Assembly: GCA_963555985.3 (NCBI GenBank)
Contig: OY820591.1
Span: 992,001 to 1,056,000, forward strand
Source of the DNA: Dehalococcoidia bacterium
GTDB taxonomy: Bacteria > Chloroflexota > Dehalococcoidia > Bin125
Reading direction: 5' to 3'
DNA length: 64,000 nucleotides
Of this stretch, positions 7,423-64,000 are shown one piece after another. The notes below the pieces were generated by a model, which saw only the letters and a list, made by a program, of their open reading frames with translations, did no database searches and was not told the origin of the DNA. The position numbers and the translations under genes were made by a program. The first letter of the stretch is position 1; each line of letters starts with the position of its first letter.

Positions 7423-8136
7423 ATGCAGATCCACCCCGCCCGACGCCGCCGCGCGCTCCACGTCCACTACCTCCAACAGTGCGGCCACTCCCTGCGCAAG
7501 ATCGCCGAGCAACTCGGCGTCTCCCACACCACCGTCCGCGACGACCTCCGACTGGTCGAATCCCACTGGAGCAGCATCGCCGCCCCGGCGGCCGACGATC
7601 TCTTGCTCGAATCCCTGCAACTGCTCCAGTTCCGACTCGTCCTCGCCACCCGCGACGACGAAGTCGCCCGTCTCTCAGACCGCCTCACCCCCGTCGAGTA
7701 CCTCCGCGCCCGCGACGCCCAGGACGCTCAACTCACCGCGCTCGCGCGCGAAGTCCGGCGCACCGTCGGCGAGGTTCACCGCCGCGCCGAGCAGCGCCCC
7801 GACCAACCCGGCCTCGACGCTGAGGAAGCCCAAGCCCCGGCCGAAGCCCCCCAACCTTCCACAGCCTTACAGCCCGAATCGACGATCTCCCAGCCGGAAC
7901 AGGAGATCGTCGAAAATCCAGCCCCGGAGGAAAAAATTCCCCCGCCCACGATCCAAGCCCCACCCAATCTCCAGGCCGAGGAAACGCCAACCCCAGCCGA
8001 ACCCCCCGAGGTTTCCACAGCCTTACAGCCGGAATCGACGATCGCCAATGCAGAGCGGGAGATCGTCGAAATTCCGGCCCCGCAGGAAAAAATTCCTTCC
8101 ACCCCCATCCAAATCCAGACCGCAGCCGCCGGCTAG
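7423..8136 (+). CDS. N-terminal helix-turn-helix protein with a duplicated Pro/Glu-rich C-terminal tail
   Basis: HTH signature GHSLRKIAEQLGVSHTTVRDDL, good RBS, and a 52-aa (156-bp) internal duplication. Confidence 0.75.
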   Translation: MQIHPARRRRALHVHYLQQCGHSLRKIAEQLGVSHTTVRDDLRLVESHWSSIAAPAADDLLLESLQLLQFRLVLATRDDEVARLSDRLTPVEYLRARDAQDAQLTALAREVRRTVGEVHRRAEQRPDQPGLDAEEAQAPAEAPQPSTALQPESTISQPEQEIVENPAPEEKIPPPTIQAPPNLQAEETPTPAEPPEVSTALQPESTIANAEREIVEIPAPQEKIPSTPIQIQTAAAG

Positions 8137-8578: not shown

Positions 8579-9865
8579 ATGCGAGACATGAAAACGGTGC
8601 GAATGCGGACGTTAATCCTCGTGTCAGCGCTCGTCGCTATCGTGGCGCTGGCCGTCGGGAGCCTCATGTTCGGAGGCGCAGATACCTCCCAGGCGGACGA
8701 GCACGCTTCCGCGAGCGAAGTCCGGGTTGCGACGCGGGCGCTTGAAGACGGGCGCGTCGAAGTCGCTGTCCAACAGCGCGCCGGCGGCGACTGGGGCGAG
8801 CGCCAACTCCCCGAAGCCCGCTTCCTCCCGCACGACGCCGAGGCCGGCGACTGGCATGTCTCCTCCCCGATTACCGCTCTGGCTTCATCCCAGCCGGAGA
8901 ACATCTTCACTGGCGACCTGCCGAACTTCGACGACGCCGTCCTGATTTGCGCGATCACCCATCAGCGCGAAGGCGACCAAGCCTTCTGGTCCACGGTCAA
9001 CCGCGGCATCATCAGTTGGGACCACGAACATCCTCAGGCGCGCGTCGACATTCGCAGCGGCGCCACCGCCGCCGAACAGTCGCAGCAGGTGCGCGAGTGC
9101 ATCGACAACGGCGCAGCCGCGATCGCCGTCACGCTGCCCGATCCGCAGGGACTGCGCGAGGCGCTCGATGAGGCCCACGAAGCCGGAATCCTGATCACGT
9201 CGTTCAACTCTGGCGTGCGCAGCTTCCGCGATCTCGGTTCGCTCCGCCATGTCAGCGTCGATGAGCTGACCGCCGGCCGTGTCGTTGGCGAACAGCTCAA
9301 CGAGCAAGGCGTCGCTGGTCTCGCGCTCTGCATCACCCACGAGCCAGCCAACATCGGCCTCAGCGAGCGCTGTGAGGGATTGGAAGAAACCTACGCCGGT
9401 GATGTGGAGCGGTTCTCGGTTGCCGACACCGGTACTGCCGATCTCGCAGCAACGGCCGACACGATCACGGCGCGGCTGCGCGATGAATCTCGGCCGATCG
9501 GCGCGGTCGTCGCCTTGAATGCCGTCGTCAGCCTGGCCGCGCGGGACGCCGTTGCTGCGGTCGGCTCCGACGCCGCCGTCGCAACCTTCGACCAGACACC
9601 CGATGTGCTCCAGGCCATCGTCGCCGGCGAGATCCTCTTCGCCATCAATACCCAGCCCTACAGTCAGGGCTACTACATCATGGCTTCCACATTCCACACC
9701 TGGACCGGCTGGAACGCGCTGCGGATCGACTACGGCGTCAATCCCGCGCACATCATCGGAACGTCGGTGTTCACCGTCGAAGCGAAACTGTACACAGCCG
9801 AGAATGCTGGAAGCCGCTTCACGCTTGGGCAAGGTCAGTCCGGCGGCGGCCGCCCGGGCGGCTAG
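8579..9865 (+). CDS. Sugar ABC-transporter substrate-binding protein (type I PBP fold) with signal peptide and an extra N-terminal ~50-aa module
   Basis: Hydrophobic N-terminus ending SQA|DE; PBP1 sugar-binding motifs FWSTV..G, AIAVTLPDP, ERCEG, ATFD, AINTQPYSQGY. Confidence 0.85.
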   Translation: MRDMKTVRMRTLILVSALVAIVALAVGSLMFGGADTSQADEHASASEVRVATRALEDGRVEVAVQQRAGGDWGERQLPEARFLPHDAEAGDWHVSSPITALASSQPENIFTGDLPNFDDAVLICAITHQREGDQAFWSTVNRGIISWDHEHPQARVDIRSGATAAEQSQQVRECIDNGAAAIAVTLPDPQGLREALDEAHEAGILITSFNSGVRSFRDLGSLRHVSVDELTAGRVVGEQLNEQGVAGLALCITHEPANIGLSERCEGLEETYAGDVERFSVADTGTADLAATADTITARLRDESRPIGAVVALNAVVSLAARDAVAAVGSDAAVATFDQTPDVLQAIVAGEILFAINTQPYSQGYYIMASTFHTWTGWNALRIDYGVNPAHIIGTSVFTVEAKLYTAENAGSRFTLGQGQSGGGRPGG

Positions 9866-9874
9866 GGCCTGAGT

Positions 9875-9928
9875 CCCCTCTCCCGTTGGGAGAGAGCCTG
9901 TCCCCGCGCAGGCGGGGAGCTAGGGTGC
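9875..9928. repeat. REP-like palindrome between convergent genes
   Basis: CCCCTCTCCCGTTGGGAGAG + AGCCTGTCCCCGCGCAGGCGGGG + AGCTAGGGTG. An empty relative lies at 28648-28681. Confidence 0.75.
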
Positions 9929-11041
9929 GGGTCCCCGTCGCGCGTCATCCTTCCAGGCGAGCACGCTCTGCAACAGCCCCAGACCAATGAACAGCATCAA
10001 CAGCGACGAATTGCCCGTGCTGATGAACGGCAGCGGAATCCCCGTCACCGGAATCAGACGCACGTTGATCGCGACATTGATGAACACCTGCACGGCGATG
10101 ATCGTGACCATCCCCACCGCCAGCAGCCGGCCCAGCGGCTCCGGCGCCTGGTTGATCACCCGCAGCATCCGTAAGAGCAAGAGCAAGAACAACGCGAACA
10201 ACGCCATCGCCCCGACGAAACCCAACTCCTCCCCCAAGACGCTGAAGATGAAGTCGGTCGTCTGAATCCGCACGAAATCCAGCTGGGTCTGCGTGCCTTC
10301 CGTGAGGCCTTGCCCCCACAGCCCGCCCGAACCGACCGAGGTCTCAGCCTGGATCACGTTGAAACCCGCCCCCTGCGGATCCGACTCCGGATCCAGAAAC
10401 GCGCGGATGCGGTCGCGCTGGTAGTCCTGCACCCCCGCCGCGAGTCCCACGGGCACCAGACAGAGGCCAATCGCCGCAAGCGCCGCATACTGCCGCAGCC
10501 GCACCCCAGCGAACAACGTCATCACGAACCAGATCGCGAGAAACACGACTGCCGATCCCGCATCCGGCTCAAGAAACACGAGCAGCGCCGGCAACGCCAC
10601 GATCGCCAGCGAAGCGAAGAAGATGCGCCACTCGTGCAGCCGGTCTCGGAAGTCGGTCAGGAACTTCGCCAGCCCGATCACCGTCATCAACTTGCCGATC
10701 TCGGAAGCCTGCACGACCGTGAATCCCAAATCGAACCAGCGCCGCGCCCCGAACTCGTCCGAACCCACGAACAGCACCGCCACCAACACGACGATGCCGA
10801 AGCCGTACGCGAGCCAACCGAGCGCGTCGATCAAGCGGTAATCGACCCGAGTCATCGCGATCATCAAGATCGCGCCCACGATCGCGAACGCAATATGCCG
10901 CTGGACGGCGCTGGAGAGCACCACACCTTCCGCCCCGCGCGGCAGCGAAGCCGAATAAATCACCAGCGCTCCATACCCGGCCAGCGCCAGCGCGCCGATC
11001 AGAATCAGTGGGTCGAAGTAGCGCCAGGAATGACCGACCAT
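9920..11041 (-). CDS. rodA: Rod shape-determining protein RodA (SEDS family)
   Basis: GARRWFDLG, QASEIGK, PDAGSA, TDFIFSVLGEELGF, TGIPLPFIS; lies downstream of mrdA. Confidence 0.93.
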   Translation of the reverse strand: MVGHSWRYFDPLILIGALALAGYGALVIYSASLPRGAEGVVLSSAVQRHIAFAIVGAILMIAMTRVDYRLIDALGWLAYGFGIVVLVAVLFVGSDEFGARRWFDLGFTVVQASEIGKLMTVIGLAKFLTDFRDRLHEWRIFFASLAIVALPALLVFLEPDAGSAVVFLAIWFVMTLFAGVRLRQYAALAAIGLCLVPVGLAAGVQDYQRDRIRAFLDPESDPQGAGFNVIQAETSVGSGGLWGQGLTEGTQTQLDFVRIQTTDFIFSVLGEELGFVGAMALFALFLLLLLRMLRVINQAPEPLGRLLAVGMVTIIAVQVFINVAINVRLIPVTGIPLPFISTGNSSLLMLFIGLGLLQSVLAWKDDARRGPAP

Positions 11042-11050
11042 CGCCAGACC

Positions 11051-13138
11051 TCAGTTCGACCGTGCCCGAATCGCCTCGGAGAGGCGCTGGTCTTCTTCCG
11101 CAGTCAGCGCGACCCGCGCATACGGCGGCGGCTCGGCGTTGAGGATCGCGCCGCTGCGCTCCGCCCATGCACGCAAAATCTCGCCGCCTGCGCTTGAGGC
11201 GAGATAGCCCGCCGAGAACTCAAAGAACACCGCAATCGCAATCTGCGGTTCCTCGAACGGAGCAAAAGCGATGTACCAGCCGTGCGTCGGACCCTCTTCC
11301 GCCCCGCTGACCGCCGTACCCGTTTGATTGAATTCCGCCGTCCCCGTCTTGCCCGCAGTCATCATCTCCGGCAGCGCCACCAGCGCGTCGTGACAGGTGC
11401 CCGCCAATAGACAGAGCGCCATCCCTTCGCGCACGATCCGCAGCACCTCCGGGTCGAGCTCGAGCCGCGCGCGAACGACCGGCTGCCAGGGCTGAACCGC
11501 ACGCCCGTCTCCGTCGCGTACCTCAAGCACGACCCGCGGCTCATACACCGTGCCCCCGTTCGCAATCGTGGCCGTCACCACCGCCATCTGCAGCGGTGTC
11601 ACCGACATAAACCCTTGGCCGATCGCCATGTTGTACGTATCCCCGTCGAACCATGGCTCGCCCAGCGACTCTAGTTTCTGCTCCGCAGTCGGAATCAGCC
11701 CGGAGACTTCTCCGGCCAGATCGATACCCGTCTCGCTGTCGAGCCCAAATGCGCGCGCCCACTTACCTAACGCCTCATGGCCCACGCCGTCAAATTCCAC
11801 ATCTCCGGCGATGATGCCCTCGTCGGCCAGCGCATCGAGCCGCGCCTGCTCCGATGGGTGGCGCGGCGGCTCATCGGGACGCCGGTAGGGATCGCCGCCG
11901 GCGGCGTAGTAGAAATAGACGTTGCTCGACTCGGACAGCGCCTGGCGCAGATCCAGAACCTGATTCTGCACCGTGTCGCCGAACAGATAGACGATGCCCG
12001 GAGACACGCGGTTGTGGACCTCAAGCACACCAGGCGTGTAGATCCGCGTCTCCGGCGTCAGCGTCCCTTCCGCAAGCGCGGCCGTGGCGGTCACGACTTT
12101 GAAGATCGAACCGGGCGGGTACTGGTCGGAAATCGCATGGTTGCGCAACGGCTGACCCGGATCCTCGATCAAGGCCGTCCACTCTTCCTCGCTCAGATCT
12201 TCGCTGTAGATATTGACGTCGTATGTCGGAATCGAGACCAACGCGAGCACCTGTCCCGTATTCACGTCGAGAACGACCGCAGCGGCGTAGCGCGATGCCC
12301 CCAGATGCGCCTCCAGGATCTCCTGCACACGCTGTTGGAGTTCAAGATCGATCGTCAGAACGATGCTCAGACCGGGTTCGGGAGGCGTTTCGTTCAGCAC
12401 CTCGAGCACGTTGCCGACTACATCGATCTCAACCTGCTGCCGTCCCGTCCGCCCCCGCAGTTGCGACTCATACGCAGCCTCCACACCGGTCTTGCCGATC
12501 CAGTCCGTGTAGAGATACCGCTCACCCTGCAACTCCTCGTACTCCTCCTGATTCAGACGCCCCACATAACCGAGAATCTGGCCCAGCAATGCCCCATGCG
12601 TGTACTTGCGAATCCCGACCGACTCGACCCGCACACCCGAAAGCTGCGCCCGCCTGCTGGTCAGATCGAACACCAGTGAGTCGGACGCTTCATCGCTGAT
12701 CACGATCGGAAAGAACGGGTCGTTGCTCCGCTTCCGCTGCCAGATCTGCTCCTCGATCTCCCAGGTTCTGAGGCTGAACAGCTCCGCTAGCTCCGCCGCC
12801 ACGCGCTCGACATCCTCGTCATCGATCTCGGCGGCAATCAACGTGATTCGATAAGCCGGCACATTCTCGACCAGAGGAGTTCCGTCGCGCGCGTAGATCA
12901 ACCCTCTGGTAGGCGCGAGATCGACGGTGCGGACGCGGTTGATCGCCGCTCGCGCGACATACTCGTCGTGCTGAAGAATCTGGAGCCGAACGAGCTGCAC
13001 AGTCAGAATCCCGAAGAGCAGCACGATGAAGCCGCCGAGCAGCCAAACCTTGGCTCGGTCCGAGCCGCCTTCCGGCGCTTCGCTCGAGCGCCGAAATCCG
13101 CGCATCGGTTGCAGCCGTCGATTGGGTTCCCGCGCCAT
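11051..13138 (-). CDS. mrdA: Penicillin-binding protein 2
   Basis: N-terminal TM segment, RGLIYARDG, SxxK (PGSIFK), SxN (SSN) and KTG motifs; located in the mre operon. Confidence 0.93.
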   Translation of the reverse strand: MAREPNRRLQPMRGFRRSSEAPEGGSDRAKVWLLGGFIVLLFGILTVQLVRLQILQHDEYVARAAINRVRTVDLAPTRGLIYARDGTPLVENVPAYRITLIAAEIDDEDVERVAAELAELFSLRTWEIEEQIWQRKRSNDPFFPIVISDEASDSLVFDLTSRRAQLSGVRVESVGIRKYTHGALLGQILGYVGRLNQEEYEELQGERYLYTDWIGKTGVEAAYESQLRGRTGRQQVEIDVVGNVLEVLNETPPEPGLSIVLTIDLELQQRVQEILEAHLGASRYAAAVVLDVNTGQVLALVSIPTYDVNIYSEDLSEEEWTALIEDPGQPLRNHAISDQYPPGSIFKVVTATAALAEGTLTPETRIYTPGVLEVHNRVSPGIVYLFGDTVQNQVLDLRQALSESSNVYFYYAAGGDPYRRPDEPPRHPSEQARLDALADEGIIAGDVEFDGVGHEALGKWARAFGLDSETGIDLAGEVSGLIPTAEQKLESLGEPWFDGDTYNMAIGQGFMSVTPLQMAVVTATIANGGTVYEPRVVLEVRDGDGRAVQPWQPVVRARLELDPEVLRIVREGMALCLLAGTCHDALVALPEMMTAGKTGTAEFNQTGTAVSGAEEGPTHGWYIAFAPFEEPQIAIAVFFEFSAGYLASSAGGEILRAWAERSGAILNAEPPPYARVALTAEEDQRLSEAIRARSN

Positions 13139-13692
13139 CAGAACTCCGCCGCGCCGGCCGGTTCAAGCACATGCCTGCGCGTAGGCAGGCGCACGATCCA
13201 ATAGACGACCGCCCCGACCGCCATGTTCCCCAGCACCGCGCCTACCAACACACCGCTGATCGCATCAACCCAGTCCACCGATGTCGTCGTGAGTTCGACC
13301 GCAATCGCGTGAGCGATGAAGTGCAGCGCCGAACAGACCGCGATCACGCCGATCGTGACCAGCCACTCCCAAACCCAGGCGGTCGGCTCTGCGCGCAGGT
13401 GCAGGTCGCGCCCGCTGGATCGAGAACGTCCCGACCACCAGAACGCAGCCAACCCGATCGGGGTGAATGCGGCGACGCTCACCGCCAGCCCCTGATAGGC
13501 GAGCAGACCCATGCCAATGCCGGCAAGCGGGGTCAGCACCAGCACCTCTCGCGGCTCCCGCACGATCGCCCAGCAACAGAGCACTGCCAGCAGCAGGTGT
13601 GGCCCCACGCCGAAGATCGGGAAGGCTGGAGCCGTCGAGGTCTGGAAGATCACGAGCACGAACAGCCCGGCGAGCAACAGCGGCCACTTCAT
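13138..13692 (-). CDS. mreD: Rod shape-determining protein MreD
   Basis: Hydrophobic protein with GVGPHLLL motif, between mreC and mrdA. Confidence 0.8.
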   Translation of the reverse strand: MKWPLLLAGLFVLVIFQTSTAPAFPIFGVGPHLLLAVLCCWAIVREPREVLVLTPLAGIGMGLLAYQGLAVSVAAFTPIGLAAFWWSGRSRSSGRDLHLRAEPTAWVWEWLVTIGVIAVCSALHFIAHAIAVELTTTSVDWVDAISGVLVGAVLGNMAVGAVVYWIVRLPTRRHVLEPAGAAEF

Positions 13693-14576
13693 GGTGCAGC
13701 GACTCCGTCCTCCGGTGTCGCGTCGAGCGCGGTCTCCTCCTCTCCGTAGGTCAGATCAGGCGGCGGAATCGTCAGCTGAATCAACACTTGCTCTAGTTGG
13801 TCGAGCGGAGCTAACGGCTGCAACCGCACATGCCGAAAAGCATCCTGCACGGTGCCTTCGGCGGCTGACGCGCGGCCCACCGGCAGACCCTGCGGCAGCA
13901 GGCCGTCAAGTCCGGAGGTGACGAAGACGTGCCCCAGTTCCACCTCGGCCGTCCAGGGAATTTCCACGTCCAGGTTGCCCTGGGCGTCTCCGCTGGCGAC
14001 CGTTTCAATCCGACTCTGCTGGTGCAGGACGCGAACGGCGCTGTCGGGATCGGTGATCAGGCGCACGAAGCTGGAACGGGAGCGCACGTCGATCACGATC
14101 CCGACCAGCGTGCCCCCGGCGGCGATCACAGGCAGGCCCACACGCACGCCGTCATCGCTGCCGCGATCAAGTCCCACAATCGTGCGCAGGCCGGTAAGGT
14201 CGCGCGTAATCACGTTCGCCGTCAGCAGCACGGCGTCCGCTTCGGCCTGCACCTGGAGCAGTTCCTGGCGTCCGCGTACCTGGATCTGCTGCTCGCGCAG
14301 GCGCGCATTCTCGGCCTCCAACTGTTCGATCCGGCTGCGGAGGGCGTGGTTCTCGCTCTCCAGACGGCCGAAGTCGTCCACTTCGGCAAGGAGATTCGAG
14401 ATCGGCTCTCCAACTTGCCGGAACGCCCGCTGCACGGGTCCCAGCGTTGATGAGGCGGCGTCCTCAACCGACGCGGCCCAGCCCGCGAGCGCCGCCAGCG
14501 CCAGCACGAGCGCCAACGCCGCCATCGCCAGCGTCCAGCGAATATGCCGCCCCATCCAGCCGAACCATGATCCCAT
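13689..14576 (-). CDS. mreC: Rod shape-determining protein MreC
   Basis: Coiled coil LESEN..L...LEAENARL, LDRGSDDGV, TSGLDGLLPQGLPVG; GGAGG precedes ATG 14576. Confidence 0.92.
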   Translation of the reverse strand: MGSWFGWMGRHIRWTLAMAALALVLALAALAGWAASVEDAASSTLGPVQRAFRQVGEPISNLLAEVDDFGRLESENHALRSRIEQLEAENARLREQQIQVRGRQELLQVQAEADAVLLTANVITRDLTGLRTIVGLDRGSDDGVRVGLPVIAAGGTLVGIVIDVRSRSSFVRLITDPDSAVRVLHQQSRIETVASGDAQGNLDVEIPWTAEVELGHVFVTSGLDGLLPQGLPVGRASAAEGTVQDAFRHVRLQPLAPLDQLEQVLIQLTIPPPDLTYGEEETALDATPEDGVAAP

Positions 14577-14623
14577 CAGCGCCTCCACACCCAGCCCGCC
14601 TAGCCGATCCGGCCGGCAATCGG

Positions 14624-15682
14624 CTAGCGCCGATCAGACCCCGGCTGTGTCCGCATTCCCGCCAAATTGTGCGTCTCCAACAGCGCTTCGGTGCAGCCCC
14701 GCACCACGCAGGTGAGCGGCGAATCGGCCACATAAACCGGGAACTTCGTCTCCTGCGACAACCGTCGATCCAGGCCGGGCAGCAGCGCACCGCCGCCTGC
14801 GAGCGCGATCCCCTGTTCCATCATGTCGGAGATCAGCTCCGGGGGCGTGGTCTCGAGCGTCTTGCGCACGGATTCCACAATTGCCGCCACCGAACCGATG
14901 ATGGCATCGCGTAGCTCGACCGTAGTCACTTTCACTGTCTTCGGCAGCGACGTGGAGAGATCGCGACCGCGCAACTCGACCTCCCGCTCCCGCTCCAGCG
15001 GGAAGGCGGAGGCCCCGTTGAGCTTGATCTGTTCCGCCGTCGCTTCGCCAATCTGCATGTTGTGCACCTGGCGGGCGTAAGTCATGATCTCCTGATCGAT
15101 CTCATCGCCCGCAACCCGCGTCGACGTGCTCACCACCATCCCACCCATCGAACAGACCGCCACCTCAGTCGTGCCGCCGCCAATATCGACGACAATGCTG
15201 CCCCGCGACTCGAAGATCGGTAGTCCGGCCCCGATCGCCGCCGCCATCGGCTCCTCGATCAGATGCACCTCTCGAGCCCCGGTGTTGCGAGTCGCCTCGT
15301 AGATCGCGCGCTTCTCCACCTCCGTCGCGCCGCCCGGGATACCGACCATCACCCGCGGTCGCGGAATCCCTCGCCCCGCGCGCTCGTGCGCGGCGTGAAT
15401 GAAATGACTGAGCATCCGCTCAGTCACGTCAAAATCCGAGATTACCCCGTCGCGCAACGGTCGGACCGCGACGATATGCGCCGGTGTGCGCCCGACCATC
15501 GTCTTCGCTTGTGCGCCAATCGCCAGCACGCGCCGATTGAGCTGGTCAATCGCAACAACCGACGGTTCGTTGATCACGATCCCCCGCCCGCGCACGGCCA
15601 CGAGCGTGTTCGCGGTACCCAAATCAATCCCGATGTCGTGGGAAAATCGTCTCGCCAACCAGTTCAGCGGAGACCAGACCAT
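14624..15682 (-). CDS. mreB: Rod shape-determining protein MreB
   Basis: DIGIDLGTANT, EPMAAAIGAG, VDIGGGTTE. Confidence 0.96.
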   Translation of the reverse strand: MVWSPLNWLARRFSHDIGIDLGTANTLVAVRGRGIVINEPSVVAIDQLNRRVLAIGAQAKTMVGRTPAHIVAVRPLRDGVISDFDVTERMLSHFIHAAHERAGRGIPRPRVMVGIPGGATEVEKRAIYEATRNTGAREVHLIEEPMAAAIGAGLPIFESRGSIVVDIGGGTTEVAVCSMGGMVVSTSTRVAGDEIDQEIMTYARQVHNMQIGEATAEQIKLNGASAFPLEREREVELRGRDLSTSLPKTVKVTTVELRDAIIGSVAAIVESVRKTLETTPPELISDMMEQGIALAGGGALLPGLDRRLSQETKFPVYVADSPLTCVVRGCTEALLETHNLAGMRTQPGSDRR

Positions 15683-15842
15683 GCATGATCCCATTTGCCG
15701 ACGGCGCTCCGCGCGGGAACGCAGCGTGAGAAGCCGCCAATCCAAGGTTGGCGTTCATTGGCTGCACCTAGCCTACCGCGCCGTCCCAATTCCAGTAGCG
15801 CGCAGTGTCGATTACGTCCGCTGATCCGCACCGGATTTCCTC

Positions 15843-63078: not shown

Positions 63079-63999
63079 TTAGCCGCCTACCTCGATCGCA
63101 GAGCTTTGCAACCAACCGGTTGCACCGCTGCGCGCCGAGATATAGCGCGAGGTTGGCAGAATCCGTTCGCCGTCTGTTGGCCTGAAGGCAAACTCCGTTC
63201 TGCCGTCGGGCAGCAGACGCGCCTCGATCCGGCCGATTTCGACTCCCTCGACAACTATGGCGCTGGAAGCGAACCAGAACTGCCTTGACGGAGTGGCGGG
63301 GACGTACCGAACGCGAGGCATGATCCGCTCTCCGCCATTGATCTGAACGGCGAATTCGGTGCGACCGTCTCTCAGCCGACGCGCCACAATCCGCAAACTG
63401 ACCGCGTCGGCTTCCATCGCAGTGATGGTTTGCACAGTGATGGTTTGAGCCAGGCGCAGCCCCGCTGGTGGTTGCGTGGCGTCAGGACCGTTGTATCCCC
63501 AACATTCGACCGTACCAGCGATCGTCACACCGCAGCTATGGGAGTCGCCTGCGCTGACCTGAACGAAGACGCCGCTAGGCGGTGAGGCTTCTCCGTACTG
63601 GTTATCTCCCCAGCACACAATCTGGCCGTTGGTTTTCACGCCACAGTTGTGAGAGACGCCTGCACTGACTTGGACGAAGTCTCCGCTCGGCGGGCTCGCC
63701 CGACCGTAGGAATCTACCCCCCAACACTCGACCTCACCGTTGCTTGTCACACCGCAACCGTGTGTGCCGTCGATAAGCAAAGGACTCCCCGCGGCCCGCT
63801 GAGACCCACCCGCGCTTACTTGAAGGAAGTGCTCTGCCCGACCGGTTGGGAGGCCGTTAAGCAGGCCCCAACAGTGAGCAACGCCTGACCTCGTCACGCC
63901 GCAGCTATGGGCGGGGCCTGCACTAACCTGTGCAAAGCGTTCTGCTGGTGGATTGCTCCAAGACACTCCCCAGCACTGAACTTCGTCTGTGCTCGTAAG
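63079..63999 (-). CDS. RCC1-like repeat protein with two C-terminal copies of a ~50-aa module; 5' end truncated by the window edge
   Basis: Repeats of F.QVSAG..H.CGV...G...CWG......PP. The frame stays open to the window edge (LTSTDEVQCWG). Confidence 0.85.
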   Translation of the reverse strand, partial: LTSTDEVQCWGVSWSNPPAERFAQVSAGPAHSCGVTRSGVAHCWGLLNGLPTGRAEHFLQVSAGGSQRAAGSPLLIDGTHGCGVTSNGEVECWGVDSYGRASPPSGDFVQVSAGVSHNCGVKTNGQIVCWGDNQYGEASPPSGVFVQVSAGDSHSCGVTIAGTVECWGYNGPDATQPPAGLRLAQTITVQTITAMEADAVSLRIVARRLRDGRTEFAVQINGGERIMPRVRYVPATPSRQFWFASSAIVVEGVEIGRIEARLLPDGRTEFAFRPTDGERILPTSRYISARSGATGWLQSSAIEVGG

Positions 64000-64000
64000 C

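Follow-up and report, generated by a model that had tools for sequence, protein, structure and literature searches.

A candidate envelope-anchoring module on exported proteins of Dehalococcoidia and Acidimicrobiia

Two module-bearing genes at the locus

The window, that is, the whole stretch of 64,000 nucleotides analysed here, corresponds to G000:C1:992001-1056000 (genome G000, contig C1). Towards its two ends lie genes for two exported proteins with unrelated cargo that share a short domain, hereafter module A.

8579..9865, plus strand: gene for an exported sugar-binding-type protein of 428 aa (N-terminal hydrophobic stretch, module, Peripla_BP_4)
8612..8671, plus strand: predicted hydrophobic stretch of a signal peptide or signal anchor (hydropathy)
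8717..8872, plus strand: module A, a single copy of 52 aa between the hydrophobic N-terminus and Peripla_BP_4 (profile search, alignment)
8972..9688, plus strand: Peripla_BP_4 cargo domain PF13407, E 1.3e-31 (Pfam)
63079..64000, minus strand: 3' part of the gene for an exported RCC1-repeat protein, which begins, signal peptide included, outside the window (G000:C1:1057142)
63256..63399, minus strand: module A, first of a C-terminal tandem pair (profile search, alignment)
63094..63237, minus strand: module A, second of the C-terminal tandem pair (profile search, alignment)

All three copies are present exactly as quoted in the first-pass annotation, and their good alignment is upheld by pairwise scores of 83, 67 and 112, the best shuffled scores being 39, 52 and 39 and each observed score being reached by 0 of 2000 shuffles. 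The tandem pair had been located correctly, but the span given for it, 63088-63399, is 6 nt too generous at 63088. The product of 8579..9865 has no lipobox Cys, and no permease gene adjoins its gene. The RCC1-repeat ORF measures 687 aa from stop to stop (G000:C1:1055082-1057142) and crosses the right window end; the gene upstream of it, outside the window, encodes two module A copies together with a weak M23 peptidase match.

The first module A gene adjoins a minus-strand run (window 9920-15745) that we take to be mreB-mreC-mreD-pbp2-rodA, which is consistent with a peptidoglycan wall. Near-identical HTH-like ORFs with internal repeats occur at window 7423-8136 (+) and at L018:1398-2249 (+), directly upstream of or near two different module A binding-protein genes, and this pair is possibly a small mobile element.

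Extent, export and cargo of module A in the genome

When a profile seeded with the three copies was searched iteratively through the ORFs of G000, 46 copies were found in 36 ORFs, 10 with two copies and 26 with one; the best match of the three-copy profile in reversed ORFs had an iE of 0.017. The 36 ORFs include a 48-aa remnant and two near-duplicates located on small contigs. The module is 50-55 aa long and predicted to be all-beta. Export signals and lipoboxes were called in this genome by hydropathy rules on our own crude gene calls, with no trained predictor. By such a rule, 32 of the 34 module A ORFs on C1 bear an N-terminal hydrophobic stretch, while the remaining two comprise one with the stretch in a shifted frame and the 48-aa remnant. 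Public module A sets gave export signals by hydropathy in 123/150, 109/120 and 101/107 proteins, against a background of 407 in 2,638 crudely called genes. A module A gene at G000:C1:2348500-2349293 (+) is frameshifted just inside the module, with its signal peptide in the other frame, reflecting either an assembly error or a broken gene.

None of the 34 C1 module A ORFs has a lipoprotein-type Cys followed by polar residues, a stricter lipobox rule that is passed by 29 of the 35 loose candidates of the genome. Under the loose rule, exclusion of the lipobox from module A proteins was non-significant in a crude census (2/20 versus 35/143, p 0.25), and the two module A proteins concerned have non-polar residues after the Cys. 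The expectation of a portable module in signal-peptide proteins with diverse cargo was borne out in G000; as for frequent cytoplasmic carriers, which would contradict it, no clear one was found in this genome.

Cargo was assigned by a Pfam scan of 32 of the 34 C1 ORFs plus the window protein, the remnant being left out. Among the 32, Peripla_BP_4 accounts for 15 (16 with the window protein) and RCC1 for 2, and 7 show no family; an Fe-type substrate-binding protein (SBP), a branched-chain SBP, a Cu/Zn superoxide dismutase (SOD), a trypsin-like protein, Cache, AhpC/TSA, a weak M23 and a weak lactonase occur once each. The 16 Peripla_BP_4 carriers on C1 lie in several cases in adjacent arrays. 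Paralogue arrays with no adjacent permease are seen at G000:C1:1180016-1196489, 2122165-2129281 and 3094508-3097354, and no permease was found beside any of the 12 of 16 carriers whose neighbours were listed, the window gene included. The one sugar ABC operon seen, near C1:2908108, has binding proteins without module A. The module may be N-terminal, C-terminal or internal, in one to four or five copies per protein, so that the proposed occurrence at either terminus, singly or in tandem, on unrelated cargo holds.

Five module A carriers (G000:C1:979544-981562, 1917148-1918002, 2017373-2020813, 2151049-2153196 and 2348652-2349293) share an unnamed domain of ~150 aa without Pfam match, which is repeated in the longer ones and ends in TP(V/I/A)QxNL..CG.

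Sequence conservation and predicted structure

Across 768 distinct copies, conservation is concentrated at R3 (88%), A6 (89%), G12 (95%), E15 (98%), P33 (93%), R36 (98%), W47 (92%) and S50 (96%). Of the pattern first described as invariant, D11 (74%) and the segment GER (52-75%) are kept less strictly than was stated. E15 and R36 would form a structural salt bridge. The net charge is near neutral, with a median of 0 in 202 copies and +2 in 768 copies. Copies that neighbour each other are closely spaced, 370 of 405 lying no more than 15 residues apart.

For the tandem pair an all-beta fold without helices is predicted (pLDDT 90.2, pTM 0.84), in which the C-terminal segment of each copy forms strands. 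The single copy is modelled as a hairpin with an irregular tail (pLDDT 93.9), its C-terminal segment being without regular structure.

The claim that module A matches no recognised domain withstood searching. No Pfam family fell on it at E<=1, SLH (PF00395), LysM, CWB2, CW_binding, GW/SH3b and PG_binding_1 included, and no NCBIfam family covers it. Two unrelated NCBIfam matches (E 0.08-0.09), weak and unrelated PHROGs matches, and scattered sub-threshold pieces of PLL lectins among PDB sequences (each of 5.8 bits or less) were rejected. Foldseek against PDB and BFVD returned nothing at E<=0.001 for the module A models, and the ESM Atlas no usable match. With VIA-align, the best match was SlaA of Sulfolobus for the tandem pair (Z 5.6, rmsd 3.7, 95 aligned) and RpfB for the single copy (Z 3.6, rmsd 6.1, 44 aligned); a typical background best being 7-8, these scores demonstrate neither kinship nor a new fold. 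No description of module A was found in the literature searched, which left most subscription papers outside its scope. Module A is a real domain family and apparently an undescribed one.

Distribution across genomes

A public profile search returned 1,717 module A clusters at 50% identity. Among 40 relatives of G000, the module is present in 18 of 24 same-family genomes, and other families gave 1 of 16, a weak false match. Within the family, g1, g3, g7 and g8 have at least 19-67 matches and g5 and g9 at least 2-9, counts that are lower bounds with at most 150 candidates scored; none was found in six genomes of g2, g4, g6 and g10. A pattern scan of one genome per species, its pattern covering one module A subtype only, yielded 60 loci, classified by title as Dehalococcoidia/Chloroflexota/Chloroflexi (56), Acidimicrobiia (3) and unclassified (1). 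The confirmed loci belong only to Chloroflexota, Acidimicrobiia and one unclassified relative of Acidimicrobiia, and none is titled as a diderm symbiont.

Two single-contig Acidimicrobiales chromosomes carry 26 and 23 copies, which therefore are not binning noise. Among 61 genomes around G041 (Acidimicrobiia), 21 have 8-64 copies and 3 a single weak match; in three of those 21 the subtype is divergent and mostly forms a pair at the N-terminus of LRR proteins. In wide samples, with 16 candidates scored per genome, module A was detected in 9/401 genomes of the phylum and 3/401 of the class of G041. Seven extra Chloroflexota have it on one PPC-domain protein of ~845-850 aa or on fragments, and G877 on an amidase. 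Weak matches were also seen in G101 and G103. Single weak matches in G027 and G073 fall within what is presumably QueA and were dropped, and of 185 pattern matches in viral contigs 0 were confirmed as module A; plasmids gave no pattern match.

The supposed lineage specificity was not borne out: with expansions in one Dehalococcoidia clade (19-67) and in Acidimicrobiia (8-64), the module spans two phyla. A tree of 96 copies had too poor a resolution for the direction of transfer. Both bacterial groups are probably sponge-dwelling; we presume a sponge origin for the named records other than bin125. Bin125 itself comes from a sponge, according to a passage of PMC5649159.

Cargo in other genomes

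Elsewhere, cargo was scanned in 62 proteins, of which 52 were public ones chosen from the top 150 and 10 were locus proteins. They include LRR, ankyrin, cadherin, Calx-beta, FN3, RCC1, WD40-like, CAP, Spondin_N, trypsin, M10, Amidase_3 and SLH. SLH accompanies module A in 4 of the 52 public proteins, so that module A is not always the sole anchor. According to passages of PMC11706023, eukaryotic-like repeat proteins, which are believed to target the host, are enriched in sponge symbionts, and several module A cargo classes are among those named there; in the main text of that paper the terms 'signal peptide', 'S-layer' and 'RCC1' do not occur.

A secreted PPC-domain protein (L097:1318-3153, minus strand; also P0285-P0404) is composed of PPC domains, an unknown helical part and a C-terminal module pair, which is kept in 120 of the 120 top homologues listed, of 591 found. 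Its 591 clusters extend over several Chloroflexota families and Acidimicrobiia, probably as a result of transfer among symbionts, and in some genomes it is the sole carrier seen. In G062, two adjacent cargo-free genes (L110:474-1103 and L110:1111-1716, both plus strand) each encode just a signal peptide, a module pair and a short tail rich in Pro.

Exchange of module A with known anchors

Lgt is present in 40 of 41 genomes. In G000, the gene for the Fe(III) ABC binding protein lies upstream of permease and ATPase genes in the same operon, and its product carries a signal plus two modules, a region that contains no Cys. In the best 60 of 72 homologous matches, two modules without lipobox occur in 4; the other 56 loci have a lipobox in 55 (one seen by eye) and neither anchor in 1. 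A tree of 29 rows requires 2 changes to account for the module and places a lipoprotein as sister to the G000 protein. Within the module-rich Dehalococcoidia clade, 8 of 12 Fe binding proteins are still lipoproteins.

The cell-wall amidase (Amidase_3) of Acidimicrobiia offers a second case, since 15 of 30 loci have a signal and two modules without lipobox. The other 15 consist of 9 lipoproteins, 2 membrane-anchored paralogues, 1 with a signal and no Cys, 1 fusion, 1 cut off and 1 unclear; the closest module-free amidase is a lipoprotein at 71% identity. Branched-chain binding proteins with 30 distinct N-termini comprise 28 with lipobox and no module, 1 with module A and 1 with module B (see below), the module A protein (G000) having an ambiguous LALAC within its hydrophobic stretch. 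For the Cu/Zn SOD, module A is found in G000, G002 and G045, and a lipobox takes its place in G007; the SOD was not found with the query used in 7 of 10 genomes.

An N-terminal domain of ~90 aa, present in 28 distinct proteins, is followed by two A modules (14), by B (9) or by a sorting-type tail (5), and the 14 two-A versions form one clade (support 96). The tail consists of an acidic linker, LPDTG or similar, a hydrophobic stretch and RR; 3 of 5 tails match GVDTG_CTERM weakly, below cut-off. A sortase was present in 5 of 5 genomes tested. In G000 its gene lies at G000:C1:2232546-2233553 (-); no sorting-tail substrate was found there by pattern, and relatives have LPDTG-type tails. The independent swap events are few, amounting to ~2 for the Fe protein, 1 amidase clade, 1 A/B swap and 1 lipoprotein for SOD. 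In 281 public module A proteins, neither module B nor a sorting tail nor a strict lipobox was found.

Module B and candidate S-layer genes

Module B is an unnamed, GWN/W-rich domain of ~70 aa that occurs in exported proteins, single or in tandem, at either terminus (e.g., L216:1572-2084, minus strand; G000:C1:728657-731122, 843962-846244 and 1882910-1886422, among others). It is present in 24/24 genomes of the family (6-63 matches) and in 4/16 of other families, was not found in 5 Acidimicrobiia, and has no Pfam or PDB-sequence match. Homology between A and B was rejected at a profile comparison probability of 0.3%. Both modules swap on the same cargo, and their copy numbers are inversely related (Spearman -0.64 over 25 genomes and -0.73 over 10 genera), a comparison that concerns essentially one clade, with differing thresholds and a module B profile built mostly from A-poor genomes.

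Two adjacent genes, L259:3254-5449 and L259:5530-8370 (G000:C1:703254-708370, plus strand), encode large secreted Ala/Thr/Asp/Gly-rich proteins without Pfam match, which are candidate S-layer proteins; both end in a divergent-B-like segment, as judged by eye, and not in A. New S-layer anchoring domains, including for Tepidiformales, are listed with a preprint (bioRxiv 10.1101/2024.05.28.596244) and may bear on B or A.

Envelope and ligand

A Mur ligase is found in 10 of 10 genomes, 9 of which carry module A. No CsaB-type pyruvyltransferase (PF04230) was detected in the 5/5 genomes searched, all of them MAGs, with a positive control in 9/14, and no LCP family member in 5/5 MAGs. SLH gave no match in G000 and was found once, weakly, in G041. 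The missing CsaB and LCP matches argue against classic pyruvylated or LCP-linked polymers, and the anionic glycan first proposed as ligand gained no support from these 5/5 genomes or from the near-neutral net charge. That module A is kept on one widespread gene in distant lineages would point to a generic ligand, for instance peptidoglycan, rather than to a receptor specific to one lineage. A highly expressed S-layer subunit found no support in codon bias, the best of 27 module A genes ranking 199 of 2,408 where bias is weak. Peptidoglycan or an S-layer is likelier as ligand than a pyruvylated or LCP-linked glycan.

Proposed function and alternative explanations

Because module A alternates with known anchors among homologues, it is probably a non-covalent anchor to the envelope of the producing cell, a reading drawn from sequence comparison. 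The envelope attachment proposed at the outset is favoured by the swaps with lipobox, sortase-type tail and module B. The hosts would be monoderm bacteria with peptidoglycan genes, in which Sec would export the carrier and signal peptidase I would usually cleave it, many signals ending in A-x-A. Module A would then fold as a small beta structure, mostly a tandem pair, and bind an envelope component common to these bacteria. Given anchoring, peptidoglycan would be the foremost candidate, at somewhat below an even chance, with an S-layer protein appreciably less probable and the membrane or another polymer a little less probable again. Such anchoring would hold an ABC binding protein close to its permease and an amidase close to its substrate in the wall, and would present repeat proteins (RCC1, LRR, ankyrin, cadherin, FN3) at the cell surface. 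In some single-copy carriers the N-terminal helix may stay uncleaved and would then suffice as an anchor in place of module A. The module was probably transferred between Dehalococcoidia and Acidimicrobiia, after which shuffling would have placed it on many genes; within the Dehalococcoidia clade, it would have partly displaced the older module B.

It is quite unlikely that module A instead makes released proteins adhere to host cells or to the sponge matrix, such as its collagen or glycans. Such targeting would suit a module common to two phyla probably in the same host, and the PPC-domain protein, which keeps its pair in 120/120 top homologues even as the sole carrier seen; the cargo also includes repeat classes enriched in sponge symbionts, according to parts of PMC11706023. 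Yet module A occupies the lipid-anchor slot of an ABC binding protein, which needs access to its own permease, as well as that of a cell-wall amidase, and the one-subtype pattern scan confirmed only Chloroflexota, Acidimicrobiia and one relative, none titled as a diderm symbiont. Just as doubtful is protein-protein docking, dockerin-like or by self-pairing, in which single copies would pair in trans or dock on a scaffold and the partner would provide the anchor. The C-terminal segments that form strands in the tandem model (pTM 0.84) and are irregular in the single-copy model would fit such pairing, as would the short distances (15 residues or less in 370/405) and the proteins made of a signal and two modules; however, the model of the single copy is of high confidence too (pLDDT 93.9), no scaffold protein came to light, and genomes with one module A protein would need a partner too.

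That a dedicated machine reads module A as a signal for sorting or translocation, leading to S-layer passage or covalent attachment, seems very improbable. Module A does alternate with a sortase-type tail on the same ~90-aa domain, and its E, P, R and W are strictly conserved, but sorting signals are terminal, whereas module A is N-terminal, C-terminal or internal in 1-5 copies, lacks a hydrophobic tail and persists in single-carrier lineages. Scarcely credible is a neutral spacer or folding aid spread via duplicated 5' gene ends. Although Peripla_BP_4 paralogues make up 16 of the 34 C1 carriers, several of them sit in adjacent arrays, and some tandem copies are identical, indicating recent duplication, residues are strongly conserved across phyla, the module is also used C-terminally, and it shows mutual exclusion with three other anchors. 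The anchor swaps largely refute this idea.

A bolder proposal, in our estimate unlikely, extends the own-envelope anchor to a standard for surface display that is shared horizontally within the sponge microbiome, with a ligand common to unrelated monoderm symbionts and perhaps split-domain complementation, single copies rebuilding the tandem fold in trans. If true, a module A gene would work at once in a new host lineage, and the secreted protein of one symbiont could coat another.

Significance and comparison with known systems

In the literature searched, with most subscription papers outside its scope, nothing was found on how monoderm symbionts present repeat proteins. As an own-envelope anchor, module A would be a concrete candidate route by which two symbiont lineages display proteins of the RCC1, LRR, ankyrin, cadherin and FN3 classes. 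Its profile is usable as a marker of surface proteins in uncultured genomes, and if the ligand were peptidoglycan or an S-layer, it would amount to a new binding fold that might serve as a cell-labelling probe. In addition, a second unnamed candidate anchor, module B, has been brought to light on candidate Dehalococcoidia S-layer proteins. Retention categories are covered in part of PMC3415414.

Lipobox and sortase (LPxTG-type) anchoring resemble module A in that it fills the same slot on homologous cargo, but they are covalent, position-fixed and enzyme-dependent, whereas module A is a folded domain at either end. The SLH domain, of ~45-55 aa, is repeated, occurs at either terminus of varied exported cargo and is retained non-covalently, together with a CsaB-pyruvylated wall polymer, and module A is alike in approximate size, repetition, placement and varied exported cargo. 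However, SLH is helical and works as a trimer, whereas module A is predicted all-beta, is mostly paired and has no PF00395 match; no CsaB-family gene was found in 5/5 genomes, and SLH is a separate domain in some carriers.

CWB2 of Clostridioides, LysM, the choline-binding CW repeats, GW/SH3b and PG_binding_1 are portable wall-binding modules on hydrolases, adhesins and binding proteins, with lineage-level expansions; module A differs in having no Pfam/NCBIfam match or clear PDB fold match and in spanning clades of two phyla. Dockerin and cohesin are likewise tandem small modules at either terminus of exported enzymes, but module A has no Ca-binding loop pattern, helices (in the models) or Pfam match, and no scaffold was found. 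Module B is similar in its single or tandem placement at either terminus of exported proteins, in the same bacterial family and on the same cargo as A, yet it is not homologous and was not found in the 5 Acidimicrobiia. A member of none of these families by sequence or predicted fold, module A would nonetheless be like SLH, LysM and CWB2 in its anatomy and in its swaps with other anchors.
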